A stretch of DNA of 64,000 nt from Minisyncoccota bacterium. Its GTDB lineage: Bacteria > Patescibacteriota > Minisyncoccia > Phycocordibacterales > JAQTLZ01. The stretch is taken from the NCBI GenBank assembly GCA_028714635.1, contig JAQTLZ010000002.1, positions 121,841-185,840 of the forward strand, read 5' to 3'. Under the pieces are notes generated by a model that worked only from the letters and a program-made list of their open reading frames with translations, ran no database searches and was not told the DNA's origin. A program made the position numbers and the translations under genes. Shown here piece by piece: positions 1,152 through 45,032 of the stretch (position 1 is its first letter; each line of letters opens with the position of its first letter).

Positions 1152-1220
1152 ATCGATTCTCCTAGATTAAAGCTCGTAACTCTGGTATAACAAAGGGGCT
1201 CATTTATTGAGTTTTTAAAT

Positions 1221-1292
1221 GGTGGCTATGGTGTAGCGGCAGCACAAGAGCTTGTGGAGCTTTTAGTCTGGGTTCAACTCCCAGTAGCCACC
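1221..1292 (+). tRNA. tRNA-His (anticodon GTG) with genome-encoded G-1
   Basis: Manual fold: G-1 pairs with discriminator C1292; 7-bp acceptor stem GTGGCTA/TAGCCAC; D-stem GTGT/GCAC; anticodon stem AGAGC/GCTTT with loop TTGTGGA (anticodon GTG); T-arm CTGGG-TTCAACT-CCCAG. CCA is not fully encoded. Confidence 0.8.
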
Positions 1293-1301
1293 CAAGGAAA
1301 C

Positions 1302-1326
1302 AAAACAGCCGAAAGGCTGTTTTGTC
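1302..1326 (+). terminator. Intrinsic terminator-like hairpin after tRNA-His
   Basis: AAAACAGCC-GAAA-GGCTGTTTT stem-loop (GNRA-type loop) followed by TTTTGTCTT. Confidence 0.65.
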
Positions 1327-1328
1327 TT

Positions 1329-1466
1329 GGGTGGCTAAGTGAGCAACCAAGGTTGCTCACGTCTGGGAGTTGAAGCCCGATTGAGCACACCGCCCTTTTA
1401 AAACAAAAGGGCGGGGTCCAATCGGGGTACTGCTTCTGTAAGAAGCGACATCCCCAGTAGCCACCC
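1329..1466 (+). ncRNA. tRNA-His-derived, highly structured RNA-like element (138 nt), function unknown
   Basis: A 9-bp terminal helix GGGTGGCTA/TAGCCACCC and the helix CTGGG/CCCAG copy the acceptor and T stems of the adjacent tRNA. Three perfect internal hairpins (1339-1360, 1390-1414, 1432-1446) and an 8-bp long-range helix (1376-1383/1419-1426). The 15-nt block CCCAGTAGCCACCCA is identical to the tRNA 3' end. Confidence 0.35.
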
Positions 1467-1545
1467 AAACAAAACATGTAACCAGTCTCTCGGTATTTCG
1501 TCATTTTGAGTAAAGGTCGCATTACTCAATTCTTAGAAAAAAACT

Positions 1546-9770: not shown

Positions 9771-10526
9771 ATGTCGCCTGTGAATAGTGATAGGGCATAC
9801 GTGCCAATTTACTTGGCACTGGACAAGAAGGACTGGGAGCAAGCATCTCCGCTCCTTCGCACGCTCGGCAATCGCATTGATGGAGTCAAGATCCATCGCA
9901 TCTGGGATGAGCTTGGCGCGAAATCTGTTTCGATGATTCGCGACCTTGGTGTCCCTGATGCCTGGGTTGATCTCAAGCTTTTTGATACGCCGGACACCGC
10001 GGCCGAACGCGCCGAACAGGTCAAGAAAGCTGGCGCCAAAATTTTGACCGTACACGCCAAGGGCGAAGTCGAAATGATGATGGCTGCGGTCAAGAACGGT
10101 CCGGAACTGGTTCTCGCCATCACGGAACTTACTTCGCTTACGGCGGAGCAGGTGGAAGTGGGCGGTGGCCTCACGCCTAAATCGGCCGTGCTTCATTGGG
10201 CGCGTGTTGCCAAGCTGGGGACTGTTGGTGGAGTCGTTACTTCCGCACTGGAAGTGGGCATGCTCTCGAAACGACCGGAACTCAAGGGTTTCGTTCTGGC
10301 TGTCCCGGGCACGCGCTCTGCGGGCGTGGACGTCAACGACCAGAAGCGTTCGGATACGCCTTACAACGCGGTGCTTGCGGGCGCAGGACTTATCGTCGCT
10401 GGTCGGCAGGTGACTGCCGCGGAAGACCCCGTTACCGCTATCGAAGCGCTTCGGGAAGAAGTCAACAAGGCGAGTGATGAGCGGCTTCGTCTCTTGCAGG
10501 AGATGGGAAAGAAGAAAGTCGCGTAA
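9771..10526 (+). CDS. pyrF: Orotidine 5'-phosphate decarboxylase
   Basis: IYLALD motif; DLKLFDTPDT matches the OMPDC DLKxHDIPNT signature; ILTVHAKGEVEMM matches VNVHASGGARMM. GGGAGGG RBS. GC-rich (~58%). Confidence 0.8.
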   Translation: MSPVNSDRAYVPIYLALDKKDWEQASPLLRTLGNRIDGVKIHRIWDELGAKSVSMIRDLGVPDAWVDLKLFDTPDTAAERAEQVKKAGAKILTVHAKGEVEMMMAAVKNGPELVLAITELTSLTAEQVEVGGGLTPKSAVLHWARVAKLGTVGGVVTSALEVGMLSKRPELKGFVLAVPGTRSAGVDVNDQKRSDTPYNAVLAGAGLIVAGRQVTAAEDPVTAIEALREEVNKASDERLRLLQEMGKKKVA

Positions 10527-10555
10527 CAACCCGGCTCACCCCGCCCATCGGCATT

Positions 10556-11431
10556 GTGCCGACGGGCGGGAAAGCCGAAGACAGAAGACAAAGAAAGGAG
10601 AGTACCTTGCATAAGGACCAAATAAGTCAGACGGCGACGTCTCTGATCCATTTCGATCGAGACACGCCTGTGCTGGAAATCCTCCGTCTCTGTGGTGGAG
10701 TCTACCTCTGCCCTAAGGATGCGGCGGGGAAACGTGTCGGCCCGCTCGTTGGGTACGCTGGAAAAAGCCCGCGCCTGAAGACTAATCTCGTGGGGGATAT
10801 CTACGCGAATTTCTCCACGGCCGAGCGCTACTGGCACGTCATGGCTGAGTTCGCGCGGCGTCTCGTCGAGAACCCGAGATTCCAGGAGATTCTTCCGAGA
10901 CTGGACGGTCTCTGTGGGATGCCCATGGGCGGGATTACATATTCGTCGCACCTTGCGCGAGCATGTGATCGTACGGGGATCTTTCTGGAAAAGCTGGTCA
11001 CCGCGGTGGCGAACCCGATCGAGGGGACGAAGGAAGAGTCCATTCTGGTGGCCGGTCGCTGCGAGATTATCCTTGGAGCCAACTACGCGATCGTCGAGGA
11101 CGTTACCAATAACTTTTCCACCACGCTGAAAGCGATCGGTCTGATCGAAAAAGCTGGCGGAAAGGTCATTGCCATCTGCAGTATCCTGAACCGTTCACCG
11201 AAGCATACGTCTGACTTTCCGCTTCCGGACGGTCGGGAAATTCCGGTCATCTCGGCTTACCAAGAGCCGTTCCCGGAATTTGAGACGGATGACGAGGCCG
11301 TTGCGGCGGACATTGCCGCTGGAAACGTGATCTGGAAGCCAAAGGAAAATTGGCCCAAGCTCATGACCGCGATGGATGCTGCGCGTGAGACGGCGCTAGC
11401 GAATCAGTCGGACAAGCCGTCCGGTTCGTAA
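10556..11431 (+). CDS. Phosphoribosyltransferase-like protein with degenerate PRPP motif (possible divergent OPRT)
   Basis: Type I PRTase pattern: ...GGITYSS... then YAIVEDVTNNFSTT in place of VLIVDDVxTTGGT. GC-rich. True start uncertain (10556 to ~10604). Confidence 0.6.
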   Translation: MPTGGKAEDRRQRKESTLHKDQISQTATSLIHFDRDTPVLEILRLCGGVYLCPKDAAGKRVGPLVGYAGKSPRLKTNLVGDIYANFSTAERYWHVMAEFARRLVENPRFQEILPRLDGLCGMPMGGITYSSHLARACDRTGIFLEKLVTAVANPIEGTKEESILVAGRCEIILGANYAIVEDVTNNFSTTLKAIGLIEKAGGKVIAICSILNRSPKHTSDFPLPDGREIPVISAYQEPFPEFETDDEAVAADIAAGNVIWKPKENWPKLMTAMDAARETALANQSDKPSGS

Positions 11432-14946: not shown

Positions 14947-15813
14947 ATGATCCTTCTCGACGGAAAAAAAGTAAGTAAAGACAGGGCTCTTGAGCTGAAA
15001 GCGCAAGTTTCGGCTTTTAGAGTTGCTCCAACACTTGCCATTCTTCAAGTGGGGGATGATGAACGTTCGAGCGCCTATATCCGCCAGAAGAAACTTTTTG
15101 GAGAGAAAATTGGGTGCAAAGTGTTGCATGTTACATTTGAAAGCACTGTCTCGCATTCTGACATTATTGAAAAGGTAAGGGAATTGAATGCTGATATATC
15201 TGTCCATGGAATTATTTTGCAGTTGCCAATTCCTACTAATCTCGATTCGCGCTCTATTATTGAGGCGATTGATCCGAAGAAAGATGTAGACGGACTCCAC
15301 TCTGAAAACGCGAAAAAACTTACGGATGGAGATGTAAGCGGATTTATTCCTGCAACAGCCAAAGGGGTGATATCACTTCTTGATGCGTATAAAATTCCAA
15401 TTGCGGGAAAGAAGGCAACGGTAGTGGGACGCTCGGCTCTCGTGGGTACTCCGACAGCACTTTGTCTTACAAATCGCGGCGCGAATGTGACAGTGGTACA
15501 TCGCGCAACTGTGAATATTCCCGCAAAAACAAAACAAGCTGACATCCTTGTGGTTGCGGCAGGACATGCAAAGCTTATCGACGCTCGTCACGTTTCGGCA
15601 GGTCAGAGCGTTATTGATGTAGGAATCAATTTGGTGACGGGAGAAAAACTTGAGGATGAAATTCCCAAGAAAAAGTTGGTGGGTGATGTGGATTTTGATG
15701 AGGTGAAAGATATCGTTGGGGCTATTTCTCCGGTACCGGGAGGAGTGGGGCCGATGACTGTTCTTTCTTTGTTTGAAAATCTTATCCTCGCCTACGAAAG
15801 GGCTATTAATTAG
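14947..15813 (+). CDS. folD: Bifunctional methylene-THF dehydrogenase/methenyl-THF cyclohydrolase
   Basis: Full-length FolD pattern: YIRQKKLFGEKIG, DVDGLH, VVGRSALVGTPTA, PVPGGVGPMTV. Confidence 0.95.
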   Translation: MILLDGKKVSKDRALELKAQVSAFRVAPTLAILQVGDDERSSAYIRQKKLFGEKIGCKVLHVTFESTVSHSDIIEKVRELNADISVHGIILQLPIPTNLDSRSIIEAIDPKKDVDGLHSENAKKLTDGDVSGFIPATAKGVISLLDAYKIPIAGKKATVVGRSALVGTPTALCLTNRGANVTVVHRATVNIPAKTKQADILVVAAGHAKLIDARHVSAGQSVIDVGINLVTGEKLEDEIPKKKLVGDVDFDEVKDIVGAISPVPGGVGPMTVLSLFENLILAYERAIN

Positions 15814-15817
15814 TCGT

Positions 15818-15826
15818 GGTATAATA
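15818..15826 (+). promoter_or_regulatory. Extended -10 promoter element TGGTATAAT
   Basis: Perfect TGnTATAAT 5 nt after the folD stop, ~90 nt upstream of ATG 15914. Confidence 0.45.
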
Positions 15827-15854
15827 GGAGAAAATATATTAGTAGTTAATTCAC

Positions 15855-15905
15855 CCTGTTAAATATCGCACTTCGCGCGATCCCGTAGACGGGATTTAAC
15901 AGGGT
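15855..15905 (+). promoter_or_regulatory. Structured leader element (three-way junction) upstream of the SIMPL gene
   Basis: Outer 11-bp helix CCCTGTTAAAT/ATTTAACAGGG enclosing two hairpins (ATCGC-ACTTCGC-GCGAT and TCCCG-TAGA-CGGGA). Followed by A7 then ATG 15914. Confidence 0.4.
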
Positions 15906-15913
15906 AAAAAAAT

Positions 15914-16726
15914 ATGGACGAAAATAAAATAGGAAGTGGAACGAGTGTAGATCACTCACGAGTAAAAAAAGCTCTCGCGCTTTTTCTGGTAATTGTTTCG
16001 ATATTCTTTGTTATAAAAACAGTCAATGAAGTAAAGAAGGGTGAGCTTATCGGAAGCGGTACAACAGCGACGAATCTCATTTCAGTTTCAGGAACGGGGG
16101 ATGTTTCGGCAGTTCCAGATATCGCAACTTTTTCTTTGACGGTTACGAACTCGAATAAATCCGTATCTGTCGCGCAAGGAGCAACCACAGAAAAAATGAA
16201 TTCGGTTCTCAAAGTTTTGAAGGATACCTATAAGATTGATGAGAAAGATATTAAAACGACGGGCTACGATATTCAGCCGAATTATGATTATGTCCAAAGC
16301 CTTTGTATTCAAGGAGATTGTACTTCAGGGCGGCAAATTCTTCGAGATTATTCAGTATCACAGAGCATAACGGTGAAGGTGCGTGATACTGCGAAGGCAG
16401 GAGATATTATTGCAGCTGTCGGACAACTCAATGTGAATTATCTAAGTGGCCTTACATTTAGCATCGATAACCAAGATGCGCTTAACGAACAGGCTCGAAA
16501 GAAAGCGATTGATCAGGCGAAAGCGAAAGCAGAAGTATTGGCGGGGGATTTGGGCGTGAAGCTTGTGCGAATCGTGAACTTTAGCGAGAACGGAAATTAT
16601 CCGATTGCATTTGATAGAGGAATGATGGCATCTGCGCCGATGATGGAGAAAGCAGTGGCACCCGACATTCCAAAAGGGGAGAACAAGATCACTTCAAACG
16701 TGACGATTACGTACGAGATACGCTAG
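15914..16726 (+). CDS. SIMPL-domain (DUF541/BP26-like) periplasmic protein
   Basis: N-terminal TM/signal anchor, then a SIMPL-type sequence (VSGTGDVSAVPDIATFSLTV...QSITVKVRD...GENKITSNVTITYEI). Confidence 0.85.
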   Translation: MDENKIGSGTSVDHSRVKKALALFLVIVSIFFVIKTVNEVKKGELIGSGTTATNLISVSGTGDVSAVPDIATFSLTVTNSNKSVSVAQGATTEKMNSVLKVLKDTYKIDEKDIKTTGYDIQPNYDYVQSLCIQGDCTSGRQILRDYSVSQSITVKVRDTAKAGDIIAAVGQLNVNYLSGLTFSIDNQDALNEQARKKAIDQAKAKAEVLAGDLGVKLVRIVNFSENGNYPIAFDRGMMASAPMMEKAVAPDIPKGENKITSNVTITYEIR

Positions 16727-16847
16727 AACTAAGGATATTTTTGATAAGAAAAACTGCCGGTTCTGGCAGTTTTTCTTTGTTGACTTCTTTTTTGAAAAGA
16801 GTACTATATATACGAACCCCGCGGGGTGTTTTTTAATCCAAAAAAAT

Positions 16848-17027
16848 ATGTCAAAACTCACTGAATATGTTAAAGACACACAAGCAGAATTGAAGCATGT
16901 AAGCTGGCCGACACGAAGCCAAGCTATTGCTTTTACTGTTGTTGTTATTCTCATTTCTATCGTCGTATCATTTTTCCTTGGACTTTTCGATTCACTTTTT
17001 CAGTATTTGCTTTCACAAATCGTTTAA
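16848..17027 (+). CDS. secE: Preprotein translocase subunit SecE (59 aa, below ORF-track cutoff)
   Basis: Translated by hand: MSKLTEYVKDTQAELKHVSWPTRSQAIAFTVVVILISIVVSFFLGLFDSLFQYLLSQIV. Sits in the canonical position immediately upstream of nusG. Confidence 0.85.
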   Translation: MSKLTEYVKDTQAELKHVSWPTRSQAIAFTVVVILISIVVSFFLGLFDSLFQYLLSQIV

Positions 17028-17042
17028 CTTTTCCTCATAACT

Positions 17043-17588
17043 ATGGCAAAACAAAAAATAGACGAAGGGCGAAATTGGTATGTCATCCACACCTATGCTG
17101 GATATGAAAATGCCGTTGCTCGAAACCTAAAACAGCGCATCGAATCTCTTGGAATGGAGAACAAGATTTTCAACGTGCTCGTTCCAACAGAAAAGAAGAT
17201 CAAAATTAAAGGAGGGAAGCGAGTAGAGGAGGAAGAGAAAATTTATCCCGGATACATTCTTGTGGATATGATCGTGACTGATGATTCTTGGTACGTAGTT
17301 CGAAACACTCCTCGTGTGACCGGCTTCGTCGGCTCTGGAGTATACCCAGTTCCAATCGATCAGAAAGAAGTAGACGCGCTCTTCAAGAGAATGCAATCCG
17401 ATACCGTAAAGCACACGATTGATCTTGCTCCAGAAGACCATGTGATGATCGTTGACGGCCCATTCAAGGATTTGGACGGCAAGGTAAACGAGGTTGATCA
17501 GGAAAGAGGCAAGGTGAAAGTGCTTGTTTCGATGTTCGGACGAGAGACGCCAGTAGAACTCGACTTCCTTCAGGTCAAAAAGGCTTAA
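17043..17588 (+). CDS. nusG: Transcription antitermination factor NusG
   Basis: NGN domain (WYVIHTYAGYENAV) and C-terminal KOW motif (VDGPFKDLDGKV). Confidence 0.95.
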   Translation: MAKQKIDEGRNWYVIHTYAGYENAVARNLKQRIESLGMENKIFNVLVPTEKKIKIKGGKRVEEEEKIYPGYILVDMIVTDDSWYVVRNTPRVTGFVGSGVYPVPIDQKEVDALFKRMQSDTVKHTIDLAPEDHVMIVDGPFKDLDGKVNEVDQERGKVKVLVSMFGRETPVELDFLQVKKA

Positions 17589-17617
17589 AAAAGTTTAGCT
17601 GAAGCAAACTTTTTTAA

Positions 17618-17659
17618 CGTCGGGCTTTTTTCCTGAAATAATGAAAAAAGCCCGACGTA
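17618..17659 (+). terminator. 15-bp perfect hairpin (bidirectional terminator/attenuator) between nusG and rplK
   Basis: ACGTCGGGCTTTTTT-(12 nt)-AAAAAAGCCCGACGT. Preceded by a second A/T hairpin at 17587-17615. Confidence 0.6.
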
Positions 17660-17709
17660 AACTAGTTCAGTTGCAAATAAGAAGAAATTAAGATAACCTA
17701 CACACACTT

Positions 17710-18132
17710 ATGGCAAAGAAAGTAACAAAAAAATTGAAGCTTGTGATCGCCGGGGGAAAGGCAAACCCAGCTCCACCAATTGGCCCTGCGCTTGGTCAGG
17801 CTGGTATTAACATTGGGGAGTTCGTCACCAAGTTCAACGCTGCAACCAAGGATATGATCGGAGACCTCGTTCCCGTACAGGTTTTTGTATACGAAGACCG
17901 AACATTCTCTTTTGTCACCAAGACTCCTCCCGCATCGAGCCTTATCATGAAGGCGATCAAGATCGACAAAGGTTCAGGCAAGCCAAACACCTCAAAAGTA
18001 GGAAAGATCAGCCGAGCGCAGATCAAAGCAATTGCAGAAAAGAAACTTCCTGATTTGAATGCGAATGATTTGGCTGGGGCTATGAAGATTATTGAGGGAA
18101 GCGCCCGCTCAATGGGGGTTGATGTGATCTAA
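17710..18132 (+). CDS. rplK: 50S ribosomal protein L11
   Basis: Canonical L11: [21 protein letters not shown]. Confidence 0.95.
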
Positions 18133-18185
18133 ATCACATCAACCGACCTTTTGAGACAGAATTCCGCGTATGCGCGGAAATTATG

Positions 18186-18213
18186 TCCAAAAGGTGTACT
18201 GCTCCTGTAAGGA
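18186..18213 (+). repeat. Conserved 25-nt motif AAAGGTGTAC(T/A)GCTCCTGTAAGGAG, copy 1
   Basis: 24/25 nt identical to 45005-45032. Contains the small hairpin CTCCT-GTA-AGGAG. Confidence 0.5.
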
Positions 18214-18243
18214 GTTGATGTGATTGGATAAATAATGATAAAA

Positions 18244-18277
18244 AGCCCCGCGCCGTAAGGAGCGGGGCTTTTCTTTT
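18244..18277 (+). terminator. Intrinsic terminator after the rplK region
   Basis: GCCCCGC-(10 nt)-GCGGGGC then TTTTCTTTTT. Confidence 0.85.
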
Positions 18278-18297
18278 TCCTGTGATATAGTATTTTC

Positions 18298-20943
18298 ATG
18301 GAAAATTTTACTCCTAAAAATCCAGCCGAACTCGAACTTCAGCTCCAGAAGGCCAGCCAAACTCTTGGAGAATCTATTGCCGTTCCTTCTAAAATAGCAG
18401 ATACGCTTGGTATTTCTTTAGAAGACCTTAAGGTCAAGTTTCCTCGACGATACGAGGCGTATCTCAAGCTTATCCGAGCTGAGAAAAACAACCAGGAAAT
18501 TCCGCAAGAAGATCTCGAACATTTTCAAAAATGGATTCGAGCACTTAACAATCTTGATCGTTATATAGAATCACAAAAGACCGAAATCGGCAGAACCCTT
18601 CGTGAAAAACAAGTAGGCGTTTTCGAGGATATGAGGGATTTCGTGGAAGAGGGTGGCCAGGCTGGTTACGTTAAATTACCTACGGGATTTGGTAAGACTG
18701 TCATTTTCTCTCAATTCGTAGAGGCTCTTGGCTTACGTACACTTATCGCAGTCCCCAAGAAGAATCTTGTCCACCAAACAGCAAAAAGCCTTGAACGGTT
18801 CACTGATCTTGATGTTGGAAAACTGTATCAATATGCCAAAGAGCACGATAAGCCAGTGACGGTTAGTACATACCAATCGATGATAAAGGAAACTGAAGAT
18901 GGAGGATTAAAGCCGGAAGAGTACGACTGCCTTATCTTGGACGAAGCGCATAAAGCACTTGGGCCAAAAAGTGTTCACACCATTGAAAAGTTTGATCATG
19001 CGCTCCGGCTCGGATTCACAGCCACTCCGCAATATTCTGAAACAAAAGGAGTGCAAGATCTTTTGGAAACAGAAATCCACAGCATCTCGATCAAAGAGGC
19101 TGTGGACGATGGGGCGCTTTCCTCCTTTTCGGTCATTTTAGCAAGAACTAAAGTAGACCTTTCGAAAGTAAAGGTGAAATCTGACGGAGAATATGATGAA
19201 AAAGATTTGGAAAAAGCCATAAACGTAGCTTCCCGCAATATGGCTGCAATCAATCTTTATAAAAAGATGTTTAATGGAAAACACGCAATGGCCTATTGCG
19301 CTGGTGTCGAACATGCCCGGGAAGTTGCACGACTTTTCAACGAAGCTGGCATCAAAAGCGTAGCGGTCGCAGGTGAAGACCATCTTTCGGAAGAAGAAAT
19401 GTTGGATATCTTTGAAAAATTCCGTTCAGGAGAGATCAAAGTGATTACCAATGCTGATATTTTTGTCGAAGGATTCGATGAGCCGAAAGCTTCTGTGTGT
19501 CTCAATTTGCGCCCAACCGCATCACCGGTCGTGGCAGAACAGCGGGGCGGTAGAGTTTTGAGACTAGATCCTTCCGATGAGAATAAGCACGCGTTTATCG
19601 TTGACTTTGTTGATGAGGATGAGAAGGCAGATTCCATAAATATTTCTTTTGCAGAAGTTGCGGAAGCTTCTGAATTTCCTCCGAGGACAAACTCGCGTCT
19701 CGGAGAGGTCACTCCAGATCAAACTGAATCAGTTTCTCGCGAGAAAAGCGATATTGTCATCGAAGGGCTGGAGCTTGTAACTGATCCGAATGAAGTTATG
19801 AGGCTCGTACAGAACAAGGCGTCCAGAAAAAAAGGAACAAATGCCGAGCTAGAAGCTCAGGAAATACCGAAATGCCCGGAAGGATGGCTTGCCGTTTTGT
19901 ATTTTTCTGATGACCAACATAAAAAATATGGTTTAAAAAGATATATGGAACGTTCCATAATTTCTAGGGTAGAGCGCAAAAACGCGCATCTCTTCGGTCA
20001 ATTTAGAAGCGAGCGAAAAACGCAAGATACAGAGTGGTTTTTGTCGCCTGAAGCGCAGGCTCTTATTGAAAAGGATATGGCTTATCATGCGGGGTGGGAC
20101 TTGAAAGAGAGAGGATATACTTCTGGGCTTGAGCTCAGTAAAAGATTCGCTCTTTTTAGAGAAAAATTTCGACATTTGGAAGATGAAATATCAGAGGCGG
20201 ATCCGCAAGCGATAATTACCCGTACCTATCAGAGATTTTATTCTGCGGATGCAATAAAAGAAATTGAGGCTGTTTATGGCAAGTTTGCTCCAGAGGGATG
20301 GATTTATCGGGCGGATATCTTCCGTAAATATTTTGGCGGTAGTAAAACTGGGGGTGACGCAGGGAACAAGTTGGTGGAAAAGTTGAAGAAAGAGATGCCT
20401 GATGAAGTCGATGTGTTTGTGAATAGGCCAACTGGCCATAGTTTAGAGTTCTATTCGCCTCGTTTTGTTGAAGAGTTTGGGAAGAGAGATATAACCAGTG
20501 TCTACAAAAGCAAAGAAGAAAAAGCAAAGCGCATCGAGGATAAGAAGCGGGAAGGTCCTCCTTCGGGGTGGTTTCCTGTGAAAGATATTGTTATTTTGTG
20601 TCGAATTAAGGAACCTTTCCTCAGGCGCAAATTGAATGATATGGAGTTTTTGCACGATAATGAAATTAAAAATCTCGCTTTCGGCTTTAAGACGAACATA
20701 CTCTGTGCCACGGCAAAAATAATTCGCCAAATTATCCTGGATGATTGTAAACGTATCAAAACGGGAGAGCCGCCAGCTGGCTGGCAATCAACAGATGAGA
20801 TTTTACAGGCAAGAAGCTTAGAACTGCAAGATTTCTACTATAAACTTCTTTCTTTGCTGCCGACTCCAGAGACTATGAAGAGATATACAAAGAAAGGTGT
20901 CACTGACTACTATTTCAGTCCTGATTTTTTGGCAAAGTTATAA
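18298..20943 (+). CDS. SF2 DEAD/DEAH-box-type helicase with long C-terminal extension containing repeated PxGW modules
   Basis: Motif I GFGKTVIF, motif II LILDEAHKA, motif III GFTATP, motif VI QRGGRVLRL. C-terminal ~450 aa has four spaced P(E/S/A)GW motifs. Confidence 0.9.
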   Translation: MENFTPKNPAELELQLQKASQTLGESIAVPSKIADTLGISLEDLKVKFPRRYEAYLKLIRAEKNNQEIPQEDLEHFQKWIRALNNLDRYIESQKTEIGRTLREKQVGVFEDMRDFVEEGGQAGYVKLPTGFGKTVIFSQFVEALGLRTLIAVPKKNLVHQTAKSLERFTDLDVGKLYQYAKEHDKPVTVSTYQSMIKETEDGGLKPEEYDCLILDEAHKALGPKSVHTIEKFDHALRLGFTATPQYSETKGVQDLLETEIHSISIKEAVDDGALSSFSVILARTKVDLSKVKVKSDGEYDEKDLEKAINVASRNMAAINLYKKMFNGKHAMAYCAGVEHAREVARLFNEAGIKSVAVAGEDHLSEEEMLDIFEKFRSGEIKVITNADIFVEGFDEPKASVCLNLRPTASPVVAEQRGGRVLRLDPSDENKHAFIVDFVDEDEKADSINISFAEVAEASEFPPRTNSRLGEVTPDQTESVSREKSDIVIEGLELVTDPNEVMRLVQNKASRKKGTNAELEAQEIPKCPEGWLAVLYFSDDQHKKYGLKRYMERSIISRVERKNAHLFGQFRSERKTQDTEWFLSPEAQALIEKDMAYHAGWDLKERGYTSGLELSKRFALFREKFRHLEDEISEADPQAIITRTYQRFYSADAIKEIEAVYGKFAPEGWIYRADIFRKYFGGSKTGGDAGNKLVEKLKKEMPDEVDVFVNRPTGHSLEFYSPRFVEEFGKRDITSVYKSKEEKAKRIEDKKREGPPSGWFPVKDIVILCRIKEPFLRRKLNDMEFLHDNEIKNLAFGFKTNILCATAKIIRQIILDDCKRIKTGEPPAGWQSTDEILQARSLELQDFYYKLLSLLPTPETMKRYTKKGVTDYYFSPDFLAKL

Positions 20944-21024
20944 TTCTCGTCTTCGTCTATACTTATATAGACCAAGAATTTATCGTATATGTTAAACTAA
21001 TTCCATTATCATCTCTTTATTTTT

Positions 21025-22878
21025 ATGAACAAAAAAGGATTTTTGCCGGTTCTCATTGGAATAATTATCGCACTTCTTTTAGTCGGCGGGGGAATATTCT
21101 ATTTTGTTAAAAAACAGCAAACGGTATCTTCCTCTGTTGATGCTGTTTCTACTGCTGATTGGAAAACATATGGAAACGAGAAAGACGGTTTTGAATTTCA
21201 GTATCCCCCAAAATTTAAAATTGACCCAAATGCTTCCGAAGTATTTTTCGACATAACAGGAGAAGATAATCAGGTATTTTTTAGTGCTTCTGCTGACCCG
21301 ATCGTGGATGCACATGGAGTACCTTTGACTTTCGAAAAGTGGCTCAAATATTATGGCTTTGACGAGGGGTACAAAAGAGAAAACAGAACAATCAACGGGA
21401 ATTCATGGCTACGTTTAGAAGGTTCGGGTCGCGGTAGGACTTTTTATATTCTCGTGAAAGGAAATATGATGTACAGCTTTATTATGGGCTATGGAGCTCA
21501 GAATCGGCCGGACTTGCTTTTGTTGCAGGATAAAATTGTTACCACTTTCAAATTTACCTCTAATTCCATCTCCACTTCCGATTGGAAAACATACAGAAAC
21601 ATAAAAGAAAGATTTCAAATGCAGTATCCTCCCAGTTGGAAGGTGGTTGAAAATGTTTCTGCTCCATATCTTGTAAAATTTGTTGATCCTCTTCGTGAAG
21701 CAAAGCCGGGTACCGATCAGTCGGAAGATATGGTCTTAGTAGGTACGGGCACAATAAAACCCGCTGACTGGGAGAAAGGCTCCGGTTCGGTTTTCTGGAA
21801 GCAGGATTATGTAACGGGGGAACGCTACGTAAGAATGTCAGCCTTTGATGAAACTTCAGAAAAAATTGAAGAAAAAATTCAGTCTAGTTTTAGATTTTTA
21901 GAAGAAAAGGCGGGATGGTCTAGCTATCGAAGTACAACAGATCAATTTGATATATCTTATCCCGGCCTCTCGGCTCTGAATTTTTGGAAATTAAAGCAAG
22001 AACCCATAGAAGTTTATACCAATAAGTTACTTTTCGATTCAAGAGGGTGTCTTATAAGTAATCAAAAAAATCCTCTTGAATATATTGGAAGCCCTCTTCT
22101 TGGTGGTATTCAATTTTGTCTTAATCAAAGCATTGATCGTTCGATGGGAAATGTTTCTCTCGATTATTACTACACTACATTTAAATTCGGGAAATTTTAT
22201 GTAATTCACCTCAAGTCTGAAGGTCTTTGCACAGCCGATTCTTCAAAATCCTCTGATATTTGCAGTCTTGATAACCCCTCTGTCCAGTCGCGCATAAGGC
22301 AAGATGGGGATGAAGTTGCACTGTCTTTCAAATTTTTGGAGCCAGATCAATCAAAAGCTGATTGGGATACGTCCCCGGCAGATTGGTTGGTTTATAAGCA
22401 CCCGATTTATGGGTATTCTCTCAAATATCCTAGGAGTTTCTCGAACCATGATAGAGGAGAATCAGGAGAGAATTTAATTCCGCCCAATGATTATTTTGAG
22501 GGAACCACATTTCATGGCGGAGCCAGTTTTATAACCGGTATAAATGATGTTGATGAAAAAAACTGTTCAATGATACCTTATCGTTCCACTCAAGAGCTGG
22601 CCCGTGTTGTGAAGGATGGGCAAGTCTATTATAAAATTCAAACGAGCACTATCATGGCGGGAGATCCAAGGGACAGAGATCTCACTATTCAATACAGCGC
22701 GTTTAAGAATAGGGTATGCTATCAACTTACATTGAGCATGTATATCGTGAATCCTTCATCTGTTTATTCCAATCCTGAAGAAATTCTCAATGCCCAAAAA
22801 CAGAATATTATAGTGGAAGAGAAGTTGAAAAAACTATTTGATGTGATTGCTCAGACTTTTGTTGTACCGGCTAATTAG
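21025..22878 (+). CDS. Membrane-anchored extracytoplasmic protein with ~4 internal repeats
   Basis: N-terminal TM, then repeated modules each opening with a DW(K/D)TY...F(E/Q)(F/M)QYPP.(F/W)K-like signature. Confidence 0.85.
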   Translation: MNKKGFLPVLIGIIIALLLVGGGIFYFVKKQQTVSSSVDAVSTADWKTYGNEKDGFEFQYPPKFKIDPNASEVFFDITGEDNQVFFSASADPIVDAHGVPLTFEKWLKYYGFDEGYKRENRTINGNSWLRLEGSGRGRTFYILVKGNMMYSFIMGYGAQNRPDLLLLQDKIVTTFKFTSNSISTSDWKTYRNIKERFQMQYPPSWKVVENVSAPYLVKFVDPLREAKPGTDQSEDMVLVGTGTIKPADWEKGSGSVFWKQDYVTGERYVRMSAFDETSEKIEEKIQSSFRFLEEKAGWSSYRSTTDQFDISYPGLSALNFWKLKQEPIEVYTNKLLFDSRGCLISNQKNPLEYIGSPLLGGIQFCLNQSIDRSMGNVSLDYYYTTFKFGKFYVIHLKSEGLCTADSSKSSDICSLDNPSVQSRIRQDGDEVALSFKFLEPDQSKADWDTSPADWLVYKHPIYGYSLKYPRSFSNHDRGESGENLIPPNDYFEGTTFHGGASFITGINDVDEKNCSMIPYRSTQELARVVKDGQVYYKIQTSTIMAGDPRDRDLTIQYSAFKNRVCYQLTLSMYIVNPSSVYSNPEEILNAQKQNIIVEEKLKKLFDVIAQTFVVPAN

Positions 22879-22976
22879 AGTCTCTCCAGTGTTACCCTAT
22901 ATCTATCAACAGAAAATACTATCATATATGATAGTATTTTAGGAAAGGGAAAGGTCTACGTATAAGTGCTTTTTGA

Positions 22977-23882
22977 TTACATAGTGAAACCAGATGCAAT
23001 CATCTCACTAAGTTTCTTGCGCAGTATCTCATAACCATCGGGGATTTTTCTTCCTTGTTTTGTCTCCAGCATATGTTTTATGGGTCTTATAAGACCTGGG
23101 AATTTCGATCTTCTCAAGAGATCTTTGTCCTTTTGACCACTATAGAATGAGAAAGTCTGCTCTGCGAAAAGATTTCCATAATCCCACAAGCCAGCAAAAT
23201 CTGCTGCCGGATCTGCGATGTCGATATCTGAAAAATCAATAATGCCGGTTAAGGCTCCTGTGGTTTGGTCAAAAAGTATATGTTTGTTGTTTAAATCATA
23301 ATGAATTATTTTTGGTTCAAAGTCGAAAGACAGACCGAGATATTCATTGAACTGGTGTTCAACCCAGTCAACCTCTTTGTTTGTCAATTCAGGAAAAACT
23401 TTCTCTCGTAACTCTTTTAAAATTGATTCGATATTTCGCTTTCCCCACCAGTGCCCTTTCGGATCAGCCTTGAAACCGCAGTTTCTCAATATCTCCGTCG
23501 GCGTCGAATGTAAATCCGAAATAAATTTTCCTAATGCTTTGGCGATATCAGTTTTTTGAATTTCACTTTGTGAATTGAAAAGTTCAGGTTGCATTTCAGT
23601 ACCAGTCAGCATTTGATATCCACCAAAGCTCCTGTCTTTAGAAAGATAGATATATTTGGGAATGGGTAGCGTTACTTTTGTGAGTAGGTGTTCTAGGAAT
23701 TTTACCTCCACTTGAAAACGTCGAATATAATTCTCCGATTTAGGAAAACGGAAAATGAGCCTATCGTCCAAGACGATCACATTGTTATCCCATCCATGAG
23801 TGATCAATCTGGAATTTTGAAACGAAACTTCGGGGAATTCCTTTTTTATAAGCTCCAGATATTCTTCTTTTGTTCTTTCCAT
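22977..23882 (-). CDS. APH/choline-kinase-family phosphotransferase
   Basis: HYDLNNKHILFD (HxDxxxxN catalytic loop), GIIDFSD (DFxD). ATG (MERTKEEY) 2 nt downstream of the folA stop; the ORF track's upstream ATG 23906 lies inside folA. Confidence 0.85.
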   Translation of the reverse strand: MERTKEEYLELIKKEFPEVSFQNSRLITHGWDNNVIVLDDRLIFRFPKSENYIRRFQVEVKFLEHLLTKVTLPIPKYIYLSKDRSFGGYQMLTGTEMQPELFNSQSEIQKTDIAKALGKFISDLHSTPTEILRNCGFKADPKGHWWGKRNIESILKELREKVFPELTNKEVDWVEHQFNEYLGLSFDFEPKIIHYDLNNKHILFDQTTGALTGIIDFSDIDIADPAADFAGLWDYGNLFAEQTFSFYSGQKDKDLLRRSKFPGLIRPIKHMLETKQGRKIPDGYEILRKKLSEMIASGFTM

Positions 23883-23884
23883 AA

Positions 23885-24376
23885 CTATTTTTCCAAAGTG
23901 ACCCAAGAATATTTCAAATCGCCAAACATTTTTTCTTCTCGGAAAGTTTCTTTCTTGAATTCGTTTTCGTATTCTGGGAAAAATGTGTCGGCTGGGATTT
24001 CAGAGTGAATGATTGTGAGGTAGAGCCTGTCTGCGAAGGGGAGTGCTTGTTTGTAAATTTCTCCTCCACCGATGACGAAGATTTCGGCCGCGCCTCCTTC
24101 AGAGGCGCGGCCTTTTTCGAGCGCCTCTTCGATCGTATTTGTCACAATGCACCCTTCCGCTTTGAAATCTTTATTTCTGGTGACGATGATATTTGCACGG
24201 CCGGGGAGCGCCCGTCCTATGGACTCATACGTTTTTCGTCCCATGATAATGGGATGCCCCATCGTAAGCGCTTTAAACCGCTTCAAATCCTCTGGAATCC
24301 GCCACAGAAGCTTATTTTCCGTGCCGAGGCCACGGGTTTTCTCGCTTATTCCAGCTATCATGTTTACTTTTGACAT
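23885..24376 (-). CDS. folA: Dihydrofolate reductase
   Basis: MIAGISEKTRGLGTENKLLWRIPEDLKRFKALTMGHPIIMGRKTYESIG...IFVIGGGEIY: canonical DHFR. Confidence 0.95.
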   Translation of the reverse strand: MSKVNMIAGISEKTRGLGTENKLLWRIPEDLKRFKALTMGHPIIMGRKTYESIGRALPGRANIIVTRNKDFKAEGCIVTNTIEEALEKGRASEGGAAEIFVIGGGEIYKQALPFADRLYLTIIHSEIPADTFFPEYENEFKKETFREEKMFGDLKYSWVTLEK

Positions 24377-24446
24377 AGTAGGGTAATTTCTTTTCTTATT
24401 ATTTTCAAACTGTAAACCTCTTACGAAATACTATATACTATTATCT

Positions 24447-25040
24447 ATGTCAGAAGCTAATATAAAAAAGATCTTAAGCAATACTGCTGATCTGAAAACT
24501 CGTTTTATCGGTGATTACAAGGAATTAAAGAAAATCGTCGACACATTTAAAAAAATCGGTTATCGAATTGTTTTGACTCAAGGCGTGTATGACCTTATCC
24601 ACGAAGGCCACGCAGCTTATCTTGAAAAAGCTCGCTCTTACGGAGATCTTTTGATTGTCGGCGTTGATTCTGATGAACTCACGAAGCAGAGAAAGGGGCC
24701 GAATCGCCCTATAGTTCCGCAACAAGAAAGAATGAAGATGCTTGTTCATTTACGGCACGTTGATATTGTGACGATACGCGAAGCGCATCACAAGATCGGC
24801 GATCTTATCCGTCTCGTGAAGCCTGATGTGCTCATTGTTTCGAAAAGCACCAGCGATTTTACGAACAAAATGGTCAACGAATATACGCCGTATTGCAAAA
24901 AAATTGTCTCTCTTATGCCGCAGGCAACCACTTCGACATCAGCTCGCGTTAGAAATCTTACTCTCGAAGGAGCAGAGAAACTGGCCGGAGAGATCTCCAA
25001 ACTCACTGAAAATTTCATATTTAAGATCAGGCAAGCGTAA
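24447..25040 (+). CDS. Cytidylyl/adenylyltransferase-like nucleotidyltransferase (HxGH class)
   Basis: LTQGVYDLIHEGH (HxGH) and a Rossmann-like fold pattern. Stop overlaps the next ATG (TAATG). Confidence 0.8.
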   Translation: MSEANIKKILSNTADLKTRFIGDYKELKKIVDTFKKIGYRIVLTQGVYDLIHEGHAAYLEKARSYGDLLIVGVDSDELTKQRKGPNRPIVPQQERMKMLVHLRHVDIVTIREAHHKIGDLIRLVKPDVLIVSKSTSDFTNKMVNEYTPYCKKIVSLMPQATTSTSARVRNLTLEGAEKLAGEISKLTENFIFKIRQA

Positions 25041-25903
25041 TGAAAAAGGTTCTCGTCGCTTTTGTTCCGGTTATCCATCTCGGGTATCTCGATTTTTTCA
25101 AGAAGCATAACTGTCCGCTCTATGTCATTGGGTCGGAATTTTATGCTGAATTTCCAAAGTTGGAACGAGATGTCCGCGCTCTTTCTCCGGAAATAATTTC
25201 TACGGCACTTAAAGCGATAAAAATTCCGAGAGAAGTAGTTCTTCTTACCAAAAAGGATCTTGGAGATTTGAAAAAAGTTTCAATTGTCATGCCGGATGAT
25301 GAGCTCTCGAGGGAATTTGCAGAAAAGTATCTGAAGGGCACGAAAATTGATTTCGAATCAATCTTTTTGCGCTGGAATAAAATTATTACTACGTCGGAAT
25401 TTACAGTGCCTCCCAATCGAACTATTTCCTACGAAACTTTCGATAGAGAAATGTTTCCAAAGGTAAGAAAGGAAGCAAAAAAAAGTTCTGATTGGTGGAG
25501 GCAAAACGGCGCCATCCTTCTTCGAGACGGGAAAATCCTTGTGGAGAGCCATAATCGTCATCTTCCAACGGATTTAAGCATGGATGTTTTCGGCGATCCG
25601 CGGAGCAATTTTGATGCAGGGGAGAAGCTTACGAAAAAAATCGGAGGAATGGAGATAACTCCGAATGATCTCTCCACCGTCATCCATGCAGAAGCATCTG
25701 TTATTGGGATTGCAGCGAAAAAAGGGATTCCTCTCGAAGGGACATCGCTTTATTGCACCACTTTTCCTTGCCCCACTTGCGCGAAATTAGTTGCCGAAGC
25801 CGGAATTAAAAAAGTTTTCTATGAAAAAGGGTATTCAATTCTCGATGCCGAAAGAATTCTCCAGGCTTTCGGGATTGAAATAATTTTAGTAAAAGAAAAG
25901 TAA
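25040..25903 (+). CDS. dCMP/cytidine deaminase fused to an N-terminal degenerate nucleotidyltransferase-like domain
   Basis: C-terminal zinc-dependent deaminase motifs VIHAEASVI (HAE) and TFPCPTCAKLV (PCxxC). N-terminal ~140 aa with VAFVPVIHLGYL resembling a decayed HxGH motif. Confidence 0.85.
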   Translation: MKKVLVAFVPVIHLGYLDFFKKHNCPLYVIGSEFYAEFPKLERDVRALSPEIISTALKAIKIPREVVLLTKKDLGDLKKVSIVMPDDELSREFAEKYLKGTKIDFESIFLRWNKIITTSEFTVPPNRTISYETFDREMFPKVRKEAKKSSDWWRQNGAILLRDGKILVESHNRHLPTDLSMDVFGDPRSNFDAGEKLTKKIGGMEITPNDLSTVIHAEASVIGIAAKKGIPLEGTSLYCTTFPCPTCAKLVAEAGIKKVFYEKGYSILDAERILQAFGIEIILVKEK

Positions 25904-25905
25904 TC

Positions 25906-26358
25906 TCACTCCTTCTCTTCCCATTTGAACCCAAATTGTTTTTCCGCTTTCAGGTCGGGAGAAATAAGATGAGCGTGCAGATGTTGCACCGATGCTCCCG
26001 TGTATCTCGTGTCCCCGAATCTCATATGAAGTATGCCGCCGGGGGTTTTCTTTTTCTGTATAAAATCTTTCATCATACTGCGCAGTTCCTCCCACGCTTC
26101 TTTGGACATTTCTGTTATATCCGAGATATGTTTTCTATGGATAAAAAGGAGGTGAACTTTGGTATTTTTGTACGGATACATATTATCAGTGGCAATCCAG
26201 TAGGCGCCTTTTTGATGTATCGGCCTCTCGTGATGTTTATGGAGTTCTTCTTCGCAAAAAGGGCACACTTTTTGCTTAGCGATCTTTTTGATCACCTCCT
26301 CGTATACTCCACGCTTTGAGTTCGCGATATTTACGAAAGATTTTTTCGTTTTTGCCAT
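25906..26358 (-). CDS. HIT-family nucleotide hydrolase
   Basis: Histidine triad HLHAHLI near the C-terminus; CPFC zinc-ribbon-like motif. Confidence 0.9.
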   Translation of the reverse strand: MAKTKKSFVNIANSKRGVYEEVIKKIAKQKVCPFCEEELHKHHERPIHQKGAYWIATDNMYPYKNTKVHLLFIHRKHISDITEMSKEAWEELRSMMKDFIQKKKTPGGILHMRFGDTRYTGASVQHLHAHLISPDLKAEKQFGFKWEEKE

Positions 26359-26369
26359 ACAGATGATTT

Positions 26370-27281
26370 TTAAACTGGGGTCGGAATAATCATCGCTGGG
26401 TGAGGCTCGTAGTCGGAGAGCGTGAAATGTTCAGGTTTGAAATCAAAAATGTCTTTTATATTTGGGTCGAGTGTTACTGTTGGGAGTCGCTTTGGTTCTC
26501 GTTTCAAAAGTTCCTCGACATAGCTGTATTGGCTTTCGTAAATATGGGCGTCAGAAAAAGTGTGTACCAATTCTTTCATGGTGTAGCCGAGAAGCTGTGC
26601 CACCATCATACCGAATCCTGCATACTGAATGATGTTAAATGGCACTCCGACAGGGAAGTCCGCGCTTCTTTGGAAGTGATGAATAACAATTTCTTTTGTT
26701 TCGGGGAAAGCAAGAATGTGAATCCAGCCGTGGCATGGTGCAACCACTACTTTTCTTTTGAGGGTACTGTGCTGGATGGCGTATTGCGGGATCCATGGGC
26801 TTATAAAATGGGTTCGCAGGTATGGGCGTTCTTTCAGCTGTTTAATTACGTTTTCAATCTGGTTAAAGGGTGTTCCTTCTTTGGTAGGGAAGCTTGCCCA
26901 TGCCGCTCCGTATGAACCGTCTCCCAAATCTCCTTCGGGAAGTCCGAAGATGTCGCACTTTTCTTTGGTTACCCATCGTCCCCACCATTTACAGCCGAAT
27001 TTTTTCAACTCCTCATTGGTGCGAGCACCGTGAAGGAAAGCAATGTGTTCTGCGAGAGCTCCCTGGAAAAATTTTCCAGACAAGTCGCGTTCGGTGATAA
27101 CAGGAAAGCCGTTCTCGATAGGGTAGCGAAGCTGGACTCCCACGAGCATTTTCGCTTTTTCTCCCATTTTTCCGGTAGGAAGCCGGCTATGAATAGGAAC
27201 AATCTCGCGCCCCTCTTTCATTATCCTCCTTAGAATATCTTGATACTGGCTATCAGGAGTTCGGTCTTTGAGTGGTTTCAT
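26370..27281 (-). CDS. thyA: Thymidylate synthase (ThyA type)
   Basis: VAPCHGW (catalytic Cys), QRSADFPVGVPFNI (Arg and Asn of dUMP-specific ThyA), DAHIYESQ. Start set at MKPLKDR (27281) by homology with ThyA N-termini; the ORF extends upstream to 27380. Confidence 0.95.
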   Translation of the reverse strand: MKPLKDRTPDSQYQDILRRIMKEGREIVPIHSRLPTGKMGEKAKMLVGVQLRYPIENGFPVITERDLSGKFFQGALAEHIAFLHGARTNEELKKFGCKWWGRWVTKEKCDIFGLPEGDLGDGSYGAAWASFPTKEGTPFNQIENVIKQLKERPYLRTHFISPWIPQYAIQHSTLKRKVVVAPCHGWIHILAFPETKEIVIHHFQRSADFPVGVPFNIIQYAGFGMMVAQLLGYTMKELVHTFSDAHIYESQYSYVEELLKREPKRLPTVTLDPNIKDIFDFKPEHFTLSDYEPHPAMIIPTPV

Positions 27282-27288
27282 TGCAAGT

Positions 27289-27294
27289 ATTATA
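27289..27294 (-). promoter_or_regulatory. -10 hexamer TATAAT for thyA (leaderless arrangement)
   Basis: On the minus strand, TATAAT lies 7 nt upstream of the thyA ATG. Confidence 0.45.
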
Positions 27295-27345
27295 GAGGGT
27301 TTTAAAAAGAAAAGAAAATCGCCACAATGGGTGCCCTCGCTATAC

Positions 27346-27373
27346 TTGACAATATAATCATATATGTTAAAAT
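27346..27373 (+). promoter_or_regulatory. Sigma70-like promoter TTGACA-16-TAAAAT
   Basis: Consensus -35 TTGACA at 27346-27351; TGtTAAAAT extended -10 at 27365-27373. ~60 nt upstream of GTG 27435. Confidence 0.55.
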
Positions 27374-27434
27374 AATACAAGATTCCGTCCTTTCAAAACG
27401 GAACATTTTGGGGAAACAAACGTGGAGGTGGAGC

Positions 27435-44961: not shown

Positions 44962-45004
44962 GGACCCGTCCCGCAAGACCTTGAGTGTTTTGTAATCAAA
45001 AAGC

Positions 45005-45032
45005 GAAAGGTGTACAGCTCCTGTAAGGAGGA
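45005..45032 (+). repeat. Conserved 25-nt motif, copy 2
   Basis: GCGAAAGGTGTACAGCTCCTGTAAGGAGG; 24/25 identical to copy 1 at 18186-18213. Lies in the 5' leader of metG. Confidence 0.5.

Follow-up and report, generated by a model that had tools for sequence, protein, structure and literature searches.

In the canonical L11 operon, rplK, which encodes ribosomal protein L11, is followed by rplA, the gene for L1 (rplK-rplA, rplJ-rplL). In the candidate phyla radiation (CPR), Brown et al. 2015 (cited in PMC9297842 and PMC5220378) reported that one Parcubacteria subgroup lacks uL1; Tsurumaki et al. 2022 (PMC9297842) verified this with complete genomes, and 'OD1-L1' is an established label (PMC5220378). 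The stretch of DNA considered here, referred to as the window, consists of 64,000 nucleotides (nt) from a Minisyncoccota bacterium (GenBank assembly GCA_028714635.1, contig JAQTLZ010000002.1, positions 121,841 to 185,840); all statements about the window refer to this 64-kb stretch, in which genes were called with Pfam and a listing of open reading frames (ORFs). Like the uL1-lacking Parcubacteria, and in contrast to the canonical operon, the window carries secE-nusG-rplK without an rplA immediately 3′ of rplK. After a 165-nt spacer, rplK is instead followed by an ORF for a superfamily 2 (SF2) helicase of 881 amino acids (aa), as ORFs, Pfam and tblastn agree. An initial annotation, made from the sequence alone, had described this helicase as standing in place of rplA. 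That reading did not hold, as rplA is absent clade-wide, the helicase is found at rplK in this species only, and a terminator separates the two genes. The locus as a whole is probably best explained by an L1-less clade in which an incidental, lineage-specific insertion has placed next to rplK a DNA-targeted SF2 motor with a winged-helix array. On this reading, the source organism would be one of the Paceibacteria (Parcubacteria/OD1, CPR) and a member of the uL1-lacking subgroup.

The closest described counterparts of the helicase are the double-stranded-DNA translocases XPB/Rad25 and archaeal XPB-II, the DNA repair helicase RadD (YejH) and the motors of restriction enzymes, with which it shares the motor and from which it differs in the flanking domains. 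What stands out most in the interval is something else, a structured element at the 3′ end of rplK.

Absence of rplA from the L11 locus

In tblastn searches with E. coli queries, no L1, L10 or L7/L12 was found in the 64-kb window, so that the search for rplA proposed in the initial annotation was negative over this stretch. The same queries do recover L1, L10 and L12 in outgroup loci, which served as a positive control. For comparison within the clade, 80 genome loci were fetched around relatives of L11, the nearest of which all belong to Paceibacteria/Parcubacteria-type CPR genomes. L1, L10 and L12 are absent within 10 kb of rplK in approximately 67 of the 80 loci (tblastn), and these are the closer relatives; L1 lies within a few kb of L11 in 12 loci, comprising outgroup bacteria and CPR lineages with a more distant L11. 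Because about 67 of the 80 related loci are L1-less and uL1 loss has been published for a Parcubacteria subgroup, the missing rplA beside rplK is an already published clade trait; the initial remark that L1 is known to be absent beside L11 in some CPR lineages thus agrees with the literature (PMC9297842). A divergent L1 hidden 3′ of rplK was also considered and rejected, as the next ORFs in ten loci encode unrelated proteins (CYTH-like, ATP-grasp, deaminase and membrane proteins), judged from the translations by eye and with no family search.

It might be argued that rplA, together with rplJ and rplL, lies elsewhere in the genome, and that the L11-L1 operon is merely split with nothing missing. 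The view is indeed limited to 64 kb of the genome, a location elsewhere is required for rplJ and rplL, which the window also lacks, and L1 is found 1–4 kb from L11, with genes between, in the outgroup CPR loci L022, L050, L056 and L073. However, the L1-less state extends over approximately 67 related species, at least within 10 kb of rplK, the complete genomes cited above confirm the loss for the Parcubacteria subgroup, and the window L11 clusters by identity with the L1-less loci. A split operon is regarded as highly unlikely.

Comparison of gene order with related genomes, which had also been proposed, showed that the L1-less order is common to the clade and that the position of the helicase is not conserved. 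The shared order, seen at window positions 14947–27380 and in about 25 related loci, is FolD, SIMPL (DUF541), secE, nusG, rplK, DHFR (− strand), CTP-transferase, dCMP deaminase and ThyA (− strand). Thus, the secE-nusG-rplK cluster would form a self-contained unit in the clade, normally followed 0–1.2 kb away by the convergent DHFR/CTP-transferase/dCMP-deaminase/ThyA cluster. The translation-gene cluster of the L1-less clade is thereby embedded among folate and thymidylate genes.

The helicase gene as a probable lineage-specific insertion

The closest relative of the region, locus L003, shows approximately 75% nucleotide identity to the window and is collinear with it from folD through rplK, the rplK genes being 94% identical in nucleotides up to position 18098. 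In L003, the rplK terminator leads directly to the homologue of window positions 20990–21042, and the helicase cassette (approximately 18275–20985) is missing. The segment 20990–21042 (+ strand), which covers the start of the next gene and the sequence preceding it, is 89% identical to L003 10484–10536 and sets the right-hand boundary of the helicase indel. The terminator after rplK, already pointed out in the initial annotation, is an intrinsic one (18241–18279, + strand) found in both the repeat listing and the RNA fold; its strong hairpin (18241–18272) has a 14-bp GC-rich stem and is followed by a T-run, and a terminator is also present at the equivalent position in L003.

The helicase adjoins rplK only in L001, which represents the same species, and is absent from the other 79 rplK loci. 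Conversely, 12 other loci of the helicase family contain neither L11 nor NusG nor any common neighbor. JGI metagenomes yielded no close relatives of the helicase; a profile scan of them gave mainly generic helicases, and of the 8 in-family helicase loci that it returned, not one is near L11. DHFR, the usual downstream neighbor of rplK in the clade, lies 11–1200 nt 3′ of rplK in at least 25 species and 5759 nt away in the window. The helicase is an incidental neighbor of rplK and not a substitute for rplA, because it is absent from L003 and the other rplK loci, DHFR is displaced, the loci of its family lack L11 and NusG, and a terminator stands between the two genes. Since DHFR is 5759 nt away rather than 11–1200 nt as in the clade, the genes for the helicase, for a 617-aa protein and for an APH-type kinase are read as lineage-specific additions. 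The lineage-specific DNA between rplK and DHFR would thus comprise a single-gene helicase cassette of approximately 2.7 kb, the 617-aa gene and the APH-type kinase gene, with the strong terminator insulating the helicase from rplK. Functional replacement of L1 is a false lead, and the presence of a helicase at the rplA site is explained away.

The helicase may also be transcribed separately. An extended −10-like sequence, TGATATAGT (18283–18291, + strand), was read from the sequence and ends 7 nt upstream of the helicase ATG, and a Shine-Dalgarno sequence is absent before this ATG (18283–18300). Because the extended −10-like sequence lies so close to the ATG without a Shine-Dalgarno sequence, the arrangement suggests that the helicase has its own promoter and a leaderless mRNA, separate from the rplK transcript. 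A two-hexamer promoter scan did not report TGATATAGT. In uL1-lacking Parcubacteria, the anti-Shine-Dalgarno motif is often missing (PMC9297842).

Physical adjacency to rplK invites the explanation that the helicase is functionally linked to L11 or the ribosome; it could, for instance, be a DbpA-like RNA helicase with rRNA-binding C-terminal modules, recruited to this site to make up for a missing L1 stalk or missing ribosome-biogenesis factors. DbpA-type DEAD-box RNA helicases do occur among the weaker structural and NCBIfam matches, and sets of ribosome-biogenesis factors are reduced in CPR genomes (PMC12641178). However, the adjacency recurs neither in the 79 other rplK loci (L003 included) nor in the 12 other helicase loci, the strong terminator lies between rplK and the helicase, the motor is of the DEAH/ResIII type with the DNA translocases RadD, XPB and HsdR as its nearest relatives, and the same module array is fused to SNF2 plus DNA-methyltransferase-type proteins. 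Moreover, the helicase family is found in Levybacteria too, which we take to be Microgenomates. Sequences of uL1 have been described for Microgenomates (PMC9297842). A role of the helicase at the ribosome is thus extremely unlikely.

The motor and its relatives

The helicase gene (18298–20943, + strand; identified by ORF, Pfam and database search) contains all of the motifs named in the initial annotation: GFGKT at residue 130, DEAH at 215, TAT at 241 and QRGGR at 415. Pfam ResIII covers residues 100–245 (4e-25, 89 bits) and Helicase_C residues 325–423 (8e-12, 46 bits), both above the cut-off, and the Pfam DEAD model matches more weakly than ResIII (41 bits). The protein is an SF2 helicase/translocase with motifs I, II, III and VI and two RecA-like lobes. 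Its two-lobed ATPase motor, which spans approximately residues 100–460 (18595–19680, + strand), is preceded by an all-helical, family-specific N-terminal domain (residues 1–99; 18298–18594, + strand), defined by conservation among 86 homologues and by helices with a predicted local distance difference test (pLDDT) score above 85; no Pfam family matches residues 1–99. The AlphaFold2 model of the whole 881-aa protein has a mean pLDDT of 84.7.

An identical protein is recorded at NCBI for a metagenome-assembled genome of 'Candidatus Pacebacteria bacterium' (GCA_028711105.1). The database search returned hundreds of relatives; the best 120 listed all have E < 1e-124, and the source names among these 120 are all CPR/Patescibacteria or unclassified 'bacterium'. 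Identity to the relatives is 45–53% over approximately the first 57% of the protein and far lower or none beyond. In an alignment of 86 sequences, the N-terminal domain and motor are conserved, the catalytic residues are invariant, and every family-invariant column is intact in the window protein.

NCBIfam holds no model for this helicase family, and the scores of the nearest models fall far below their cut-offs (RadD, 80.6 against 720 bits; XPB, 74.2 against 610; EcoAI HsdR, 66 against 550). The best match in a sequence search of the PDB is 7clg (SauUSI; 1.1e-18), with XPB-II, RAD25 and RadD also present, and Foldseek gives the same relatives (RadD, XPB/XPB-II, SauUSI and HsdR), with RadD 6jde as the best (E 7e-17). 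The motor resembles double-stranded-DNA translocases, and the protein is outside every named family. XPB/Rad25 and archaeal XPB-II are among the best sequence and structure matches and share the two-lobed ResIII plus Helicase_C organization with DEAH as motif II; in contrast to XPB, the helicase lacks the RED motif (the string 'RED' occurs in only 2 of the 86 family members), Foldseek matches to XPB or Bax1 complexes are confined to the motor lobes, and both the N-terminal domain and the C-terminal winged-helix array differ. RadD is the best match of the motor in both Foldseek and NCBIfam; the helicase, however, has no CxxC zinc-finger pattern (it contains 7 cysteines), and five winged helix-turn-helix (wHTH) modules replace the RadD C-terminal domain. 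The restriction motors (SauUSI 7clg, type I HsdR and type ISP) have the ResIII-type motor in common with the helicase, which unlike them has no PLD or other nuclease domain and no methylase or specificity partner nearby. Assignment to the DEAD-box RNA helicases (DbpA/RhlE type) was rejected, as motif II is DEAH and the DbpA model scores 21 bits against a cut-off of 524.

A C-terminal array of winged-helix repeats

The initial annotation had drawn attention to four P(E/S/A)GW segments in the C-terminal extension. All four are present, at residues 527, 665, 755 and 826, and none of 200,000 composition-preserving shuffles of the C-terminus (451 aa) attained four P.GW copies. The count was short, however: a fifth copy, the P-less HAGW at residue 597, had been missed, and the C-terminus contains five degenerate modules of approximately 68 aa in total. 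The accompanying suggestion of a small repeated domain was borne out by the homologues P0003, P0032 and P0082, which carry 5–7 crisp tandem copies of approximately 68 aa, and by a hidden Markov model (HMM) of the module (consensus APEGWLTASELAKKLGKSEETIKRVAEKYREEHPEWFKEYLDEKGRVIEHYSPELVKIIEKEL). This HMM was built only from 39 homologue repeats, none of them from the window protein, and it matches the window protein at residues 664–727 (independent E-value 9.5e-7), 527–595 (0.016) and 826–880 (0.55). All five window segments align to the repeat (alignment A2).

The five modules are encoded on the + strand. Module 1 (residues 526–596; 19873–20085), which begins with CPEGW, is recognized by the HMM, by A2 and in the structural model. 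Module 2 (residues 597–663; 20086–20286), the HAGW copy, is placed by A2 and has the same secondary-structure pattern in the model, and module 3 (residues 664–735; 20287–20502, APEGW) is the best-preserved copy. Module 4 (residues 754–824; 20557–20769, PPSGW) is the most degenerate: it is placed by A2, has no HMM match and shows low pLDDT over residues 789–820. Module 5 (residues 825–881; 20770–20940), which runs from PPAGW to YYFSPDFLAKL, is again recognized by HMM, A2 and model. In the full model, each copy folds as strand (PxGW)-helix-helix-beta hairpin-helix, a helix-turn-helix with a beta-hairpin wing that is structurally similar to solved wHTH domains; a model of a single module reaches a pLDDT of 90.3, and Pfam HTH_29, HTH_28 and HTH_17 match inside individual repeat copies of the homologues P0025 and P0064. 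As modeled, the C-terminus is an array of wHTH folds, a known fold in a new sequence family. It is not the HRDC or RQC domain that the initial annotation had considered: a Pfam search of residues 431–881 at E ≤ 10 returned zero families, including neither RQC nor HRDC, and NCBIfam has no model for the module, its consensus giving only sub-threshold HTH similarities there.

Described winged-helix domains (MerR/excisionase HTH_17-type, ParA N-terminal HTH, pSK1 Par, PadR/MarR and RecQ RQC) are set apart from the module by its signatures PxGW, HPEWF and (E)hYSPEL. RecQ, moreover, has a single winged-helix domain, whereas the module occurs in tandem arrays: a profile search of 1.84 billion cluster representatives found 796 proteins with the module, at 4–15 copies each. 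These include proteins of 1500–1800 aa (P0125, P0129 and P0135) in which N-terminal arrays of 8–12 copies are followed by an SNF2 motor and Methyltransf_11. Within the helicase family, the C-termini vary and carry the PxGW module, INT_rpt (PF14882) or other unclassified sequence. INT_rpt occupies the same C-terminal position, with 3–9 or more tandem copies, in the helicase-family members P0015 and P0116; it has no Pfam match in the window protein, and its consensus differs (HPGWPS...WPGW...FLG). It is conceivable that such exchangeable winged-helix and INT_rpt arrays on CPR SF2 motors could act as modular DNA readers.

For the window protein, the most probable role is that of an ATP-driven translocase or helicase acting on DNA, presumably double-stranded, to which it would be anchored or targeted by its multivalent winged-helix array. 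A large family of generically named helicases, seen here only in CPR/Patescibacteria, can now be described as an XPB/RadD-like motor with a previously unmodeled winged-helix repeat. The module offers a handle for the annotation of CPR genomes and raises the question of how reduced genomes target DNA translocases.

The presence or absence of the cassette between sibling species, and its family members in unrelated contexts with strongly variable C-terminal arrays, could also mean that it is a mobile or defense gene that lies beside rplK by chance, for instance a selfish element or a component of a restriction-like or anti-phage system. Module relatives are fused to methyltransferases, the phage helicase family phrog_16 matches strongly (3.7e-74), and there are core-only matches to PADLOC PbeA and to type IV and type I restriction motors. 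However, the PADLOC matches (PbeA, mREase_IV and REase_I) are limited to the generic motor, the neighboring genes have no PADLOC matches, and the phage proteins are merely 23–30% identical. Furthermore, a nuclease domain is absent from the helicase, the loci examined (the window and L083–L086) have neither a methylase nor an integrase next to the gene, no repeats flank the window cassette, and its composition is host-like. Judged from these sequence features, a prophage or mobile-element origin of the cassette is not supported, and a mobile or defense gene is considered unlikely.

Several points weigh against the preferred explanation of an L1-less clade with an incidentally inserted, DNA-targeted motor. 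The putative absence of rplA from the source genome is read from 64 kb only, and the choice between an insertion here and a deletion in L003 rests on parsimony over clade synteny. The GC content of the helicase (0.428) is close to that of the window (0.438) and gives no compositional sign of recent acquisition. Modules 4 and 5, and in part module 1, are statistically weak when taken singly, and a DNA rather than an RNA substrate would follow only from the nearest motor relatives and the winged-helix fold.

A structured element at the 3′ end of rplK

The inverted repeat that the initial annotation had seen across the rplK stop codon is real and has exact 12-bp arms. It forms a hairpin, P1 (18117–18144, + strand), detected in the repeat listing and the RNA fold, with a perfect 12-bp stem and the rplK stop codon in a 4-nt loop; the arms are GGTTGATGTGAT (18117–18128) and ATCACATCAACC (18133–18144), and the loop is CTAA. 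Relative to L003, in which rplK ends in GVDVIG* and the element is missing, the window contains an insertion of approximately 96 nt (18129–18224, + strand; 98.5 bits with covariance model R1). The inserted region is laid out as follows. The rplK end GTTGATGTGAT (18118–18128) is succeeded by the loop CTAA, which provides a new stop, and by a perfect inverted copy (18133–18144); next come a long hairpin (18146–18195) and the conserved motif AAGGTGTACTGCTCCTGTAAGGAG (18191–18214), and a direct second copy of GTTGATGTGAT (18214–18224) ends the insertion. The last two bases of this second copy begin the ancestral codons ATT GGA TAA (18223–18231). Compared with shuffled controls, the region shows much stronger folding (z = −8.3). 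The stop-codon hairpin of rplK belongs to an inserted structured element and is a matter apart from the helicase.

Within the window, the motif recurs at 45007–45030, in an element at 44948–45030; there it directly follows the stop codon of an AI-2E transporter gene and precedes metG. A weaker match lies at 1421–1445. In other species (L045, L020 and L055), the same architecture is found on the rplK stop codon with wholly different stem sequences. In an alignment of five sequences, 95.6% of the cells are paired and 12 pairs have changed on both sides, a number reached by 0 of 500 shuffles. Covariance model R1 finds more copies at rplK ends, in L039 and, weakly, in L038, and also copies behind unrelated genes, for example those for the RNR small subunit and UPF0047. 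Altogether, copies of the element are located at window 18117–18231 and 44948–45030, L045 3385–3495, L020 10408–10516 and 4935–5029, L055 2081–2192, L038 3153–3248 and L039 10405–10560. In 11 L1-less loci, namely the window and 10 others, the rplK stop codon lies in the loop of a hairpin with 9 or more base pairs.

Two types of core can be distinguished. The first has the form (C/A)GACCTT ... AAGGTGTACNGCTCCTGTAAGGAG. The second, found at rplK 3′ ends, reads CCGGAGGCTGACGAGCCGAGG... and CCGGAGGCTGACGAGCCGAGGYGGGCCC...TTTTCAGCAGAAAAKTATGYGTGGG and is located at L012 10408–10500, L026 10408–10500, L030 10405–10500, L071 7747–7840 and L042 6009–6036. In L012, L026, L030, L071 and L039, the last L11 codons and stop are repeated at +60 nt, after the second core type; the two core types are nested in L039 and L042. 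The sequence CUGACGAG in the type II core was considered as a hammerhead ribozyme and rejected, as it lacks the required GAAA and stem III and matches no Rfam ribozyme model.

At the gathering threshold, Rfam reports only tRNA-His in the whole window, and permissive Rfam searches of 16700–18400, of L012 10380–10560 and of window 1200–1520 gave nothing at or near any threshold; in particular, the rplK 3′ structures match no L1-leader, L10-leader, ribozyme or signal recognition particle model. The conserved 22-nt motif of the element has no match in IMG/VR viral contigs. Compared with classical miniature inverted-repeat transposable elements, the element has conserved ends that do not form terminal inverted repeats and a target duplication of variable length (5 to about 23 nt).

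It is tentatively proposed, and may well prove otherwise, that the rplK hairpin is one copy of an undescribed family of structured elements of approximately 70–100 nt at the 3′ ends of Paceibacteria ORFs. From its layout, the element could be a small mobile element that duplicates its target. Alternatively, it could act as an RNA switch: the inverted copy would pair now with one direct copy, now with the other, and thereby sense ribosomes terminating on rplK. As a recurrent insertion with strong covariation and without an Rfam match, it merits a study of its own.

A further RNA candidate of approximately 140 nt lies at window 1328–1468, after tRNA-His (1222–1293). Its closing sequences are GGGTGGCTA...TAGCCACCC, its folding has z = −9.4, it includes a variant of the same GGTACTGCTYCTGTAAGRAG module as in the structured element, and it has no Rfam match. 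The candidate is syntenic in a distant Paceibacteria genome (L081, approximately 2320–2475), where it also follows a tRNA.

Neighboring genes and other features

The genes upstream of the helicase are all on the + strand. secE (16848–17027) matches Pfam SecE at 6.4e-18, nusG (17043–17588) matches NusG at 2.3e-28 together with KOW, and rplK (17710–18132) encodes a uL11 of 140 aa with the C-terminus GVDVI* (Ribosomal_L11_N, 6e-25; Ribosomal_L11, 7e-29; Pfam). Between nusG and rplK, a GC-rich palindromic hairpin with T and A runs on either side was read from the sequence (17617–17658; arms ACGTCGGGC ... GCCCGACGT), and it looks like a candidate bidirectional terminator. At L003 9685–9960, a 74-aa ORF that is absent from the window lies between nusG and rplK, inside an inverted repeat (TCCCGCCCTCAT / ATGAGGGCGGGA); judged by eye from the sequence, it resembles a GIY-YIG nuclease.

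Downstream of the helicase, positions 21025–22878 (+ strand) encode the 617-aa protein, which is predicted from the ORF and the comparison with L003 to be a membrane or secreted protein. Its L003 counterpart has 160 aa (10519–11001), and the two have in common only a signal- or transmembrane-like N-terminus (MNKKGF...). The APH-family phosphotransferase (22977–23906, − strand; Pfam APH, 8.5e-27) is missing at the L003 site. DHFR, at 23885–24376 on the − strand, was placed by locus comparison and lies 5.76 kb from rplK. Farther along the window, two tandem 72-nt copies that are 86% identical lie at 57801–57944 inside the ORF 57400–59343, which indicates a putative internal protein repeat.

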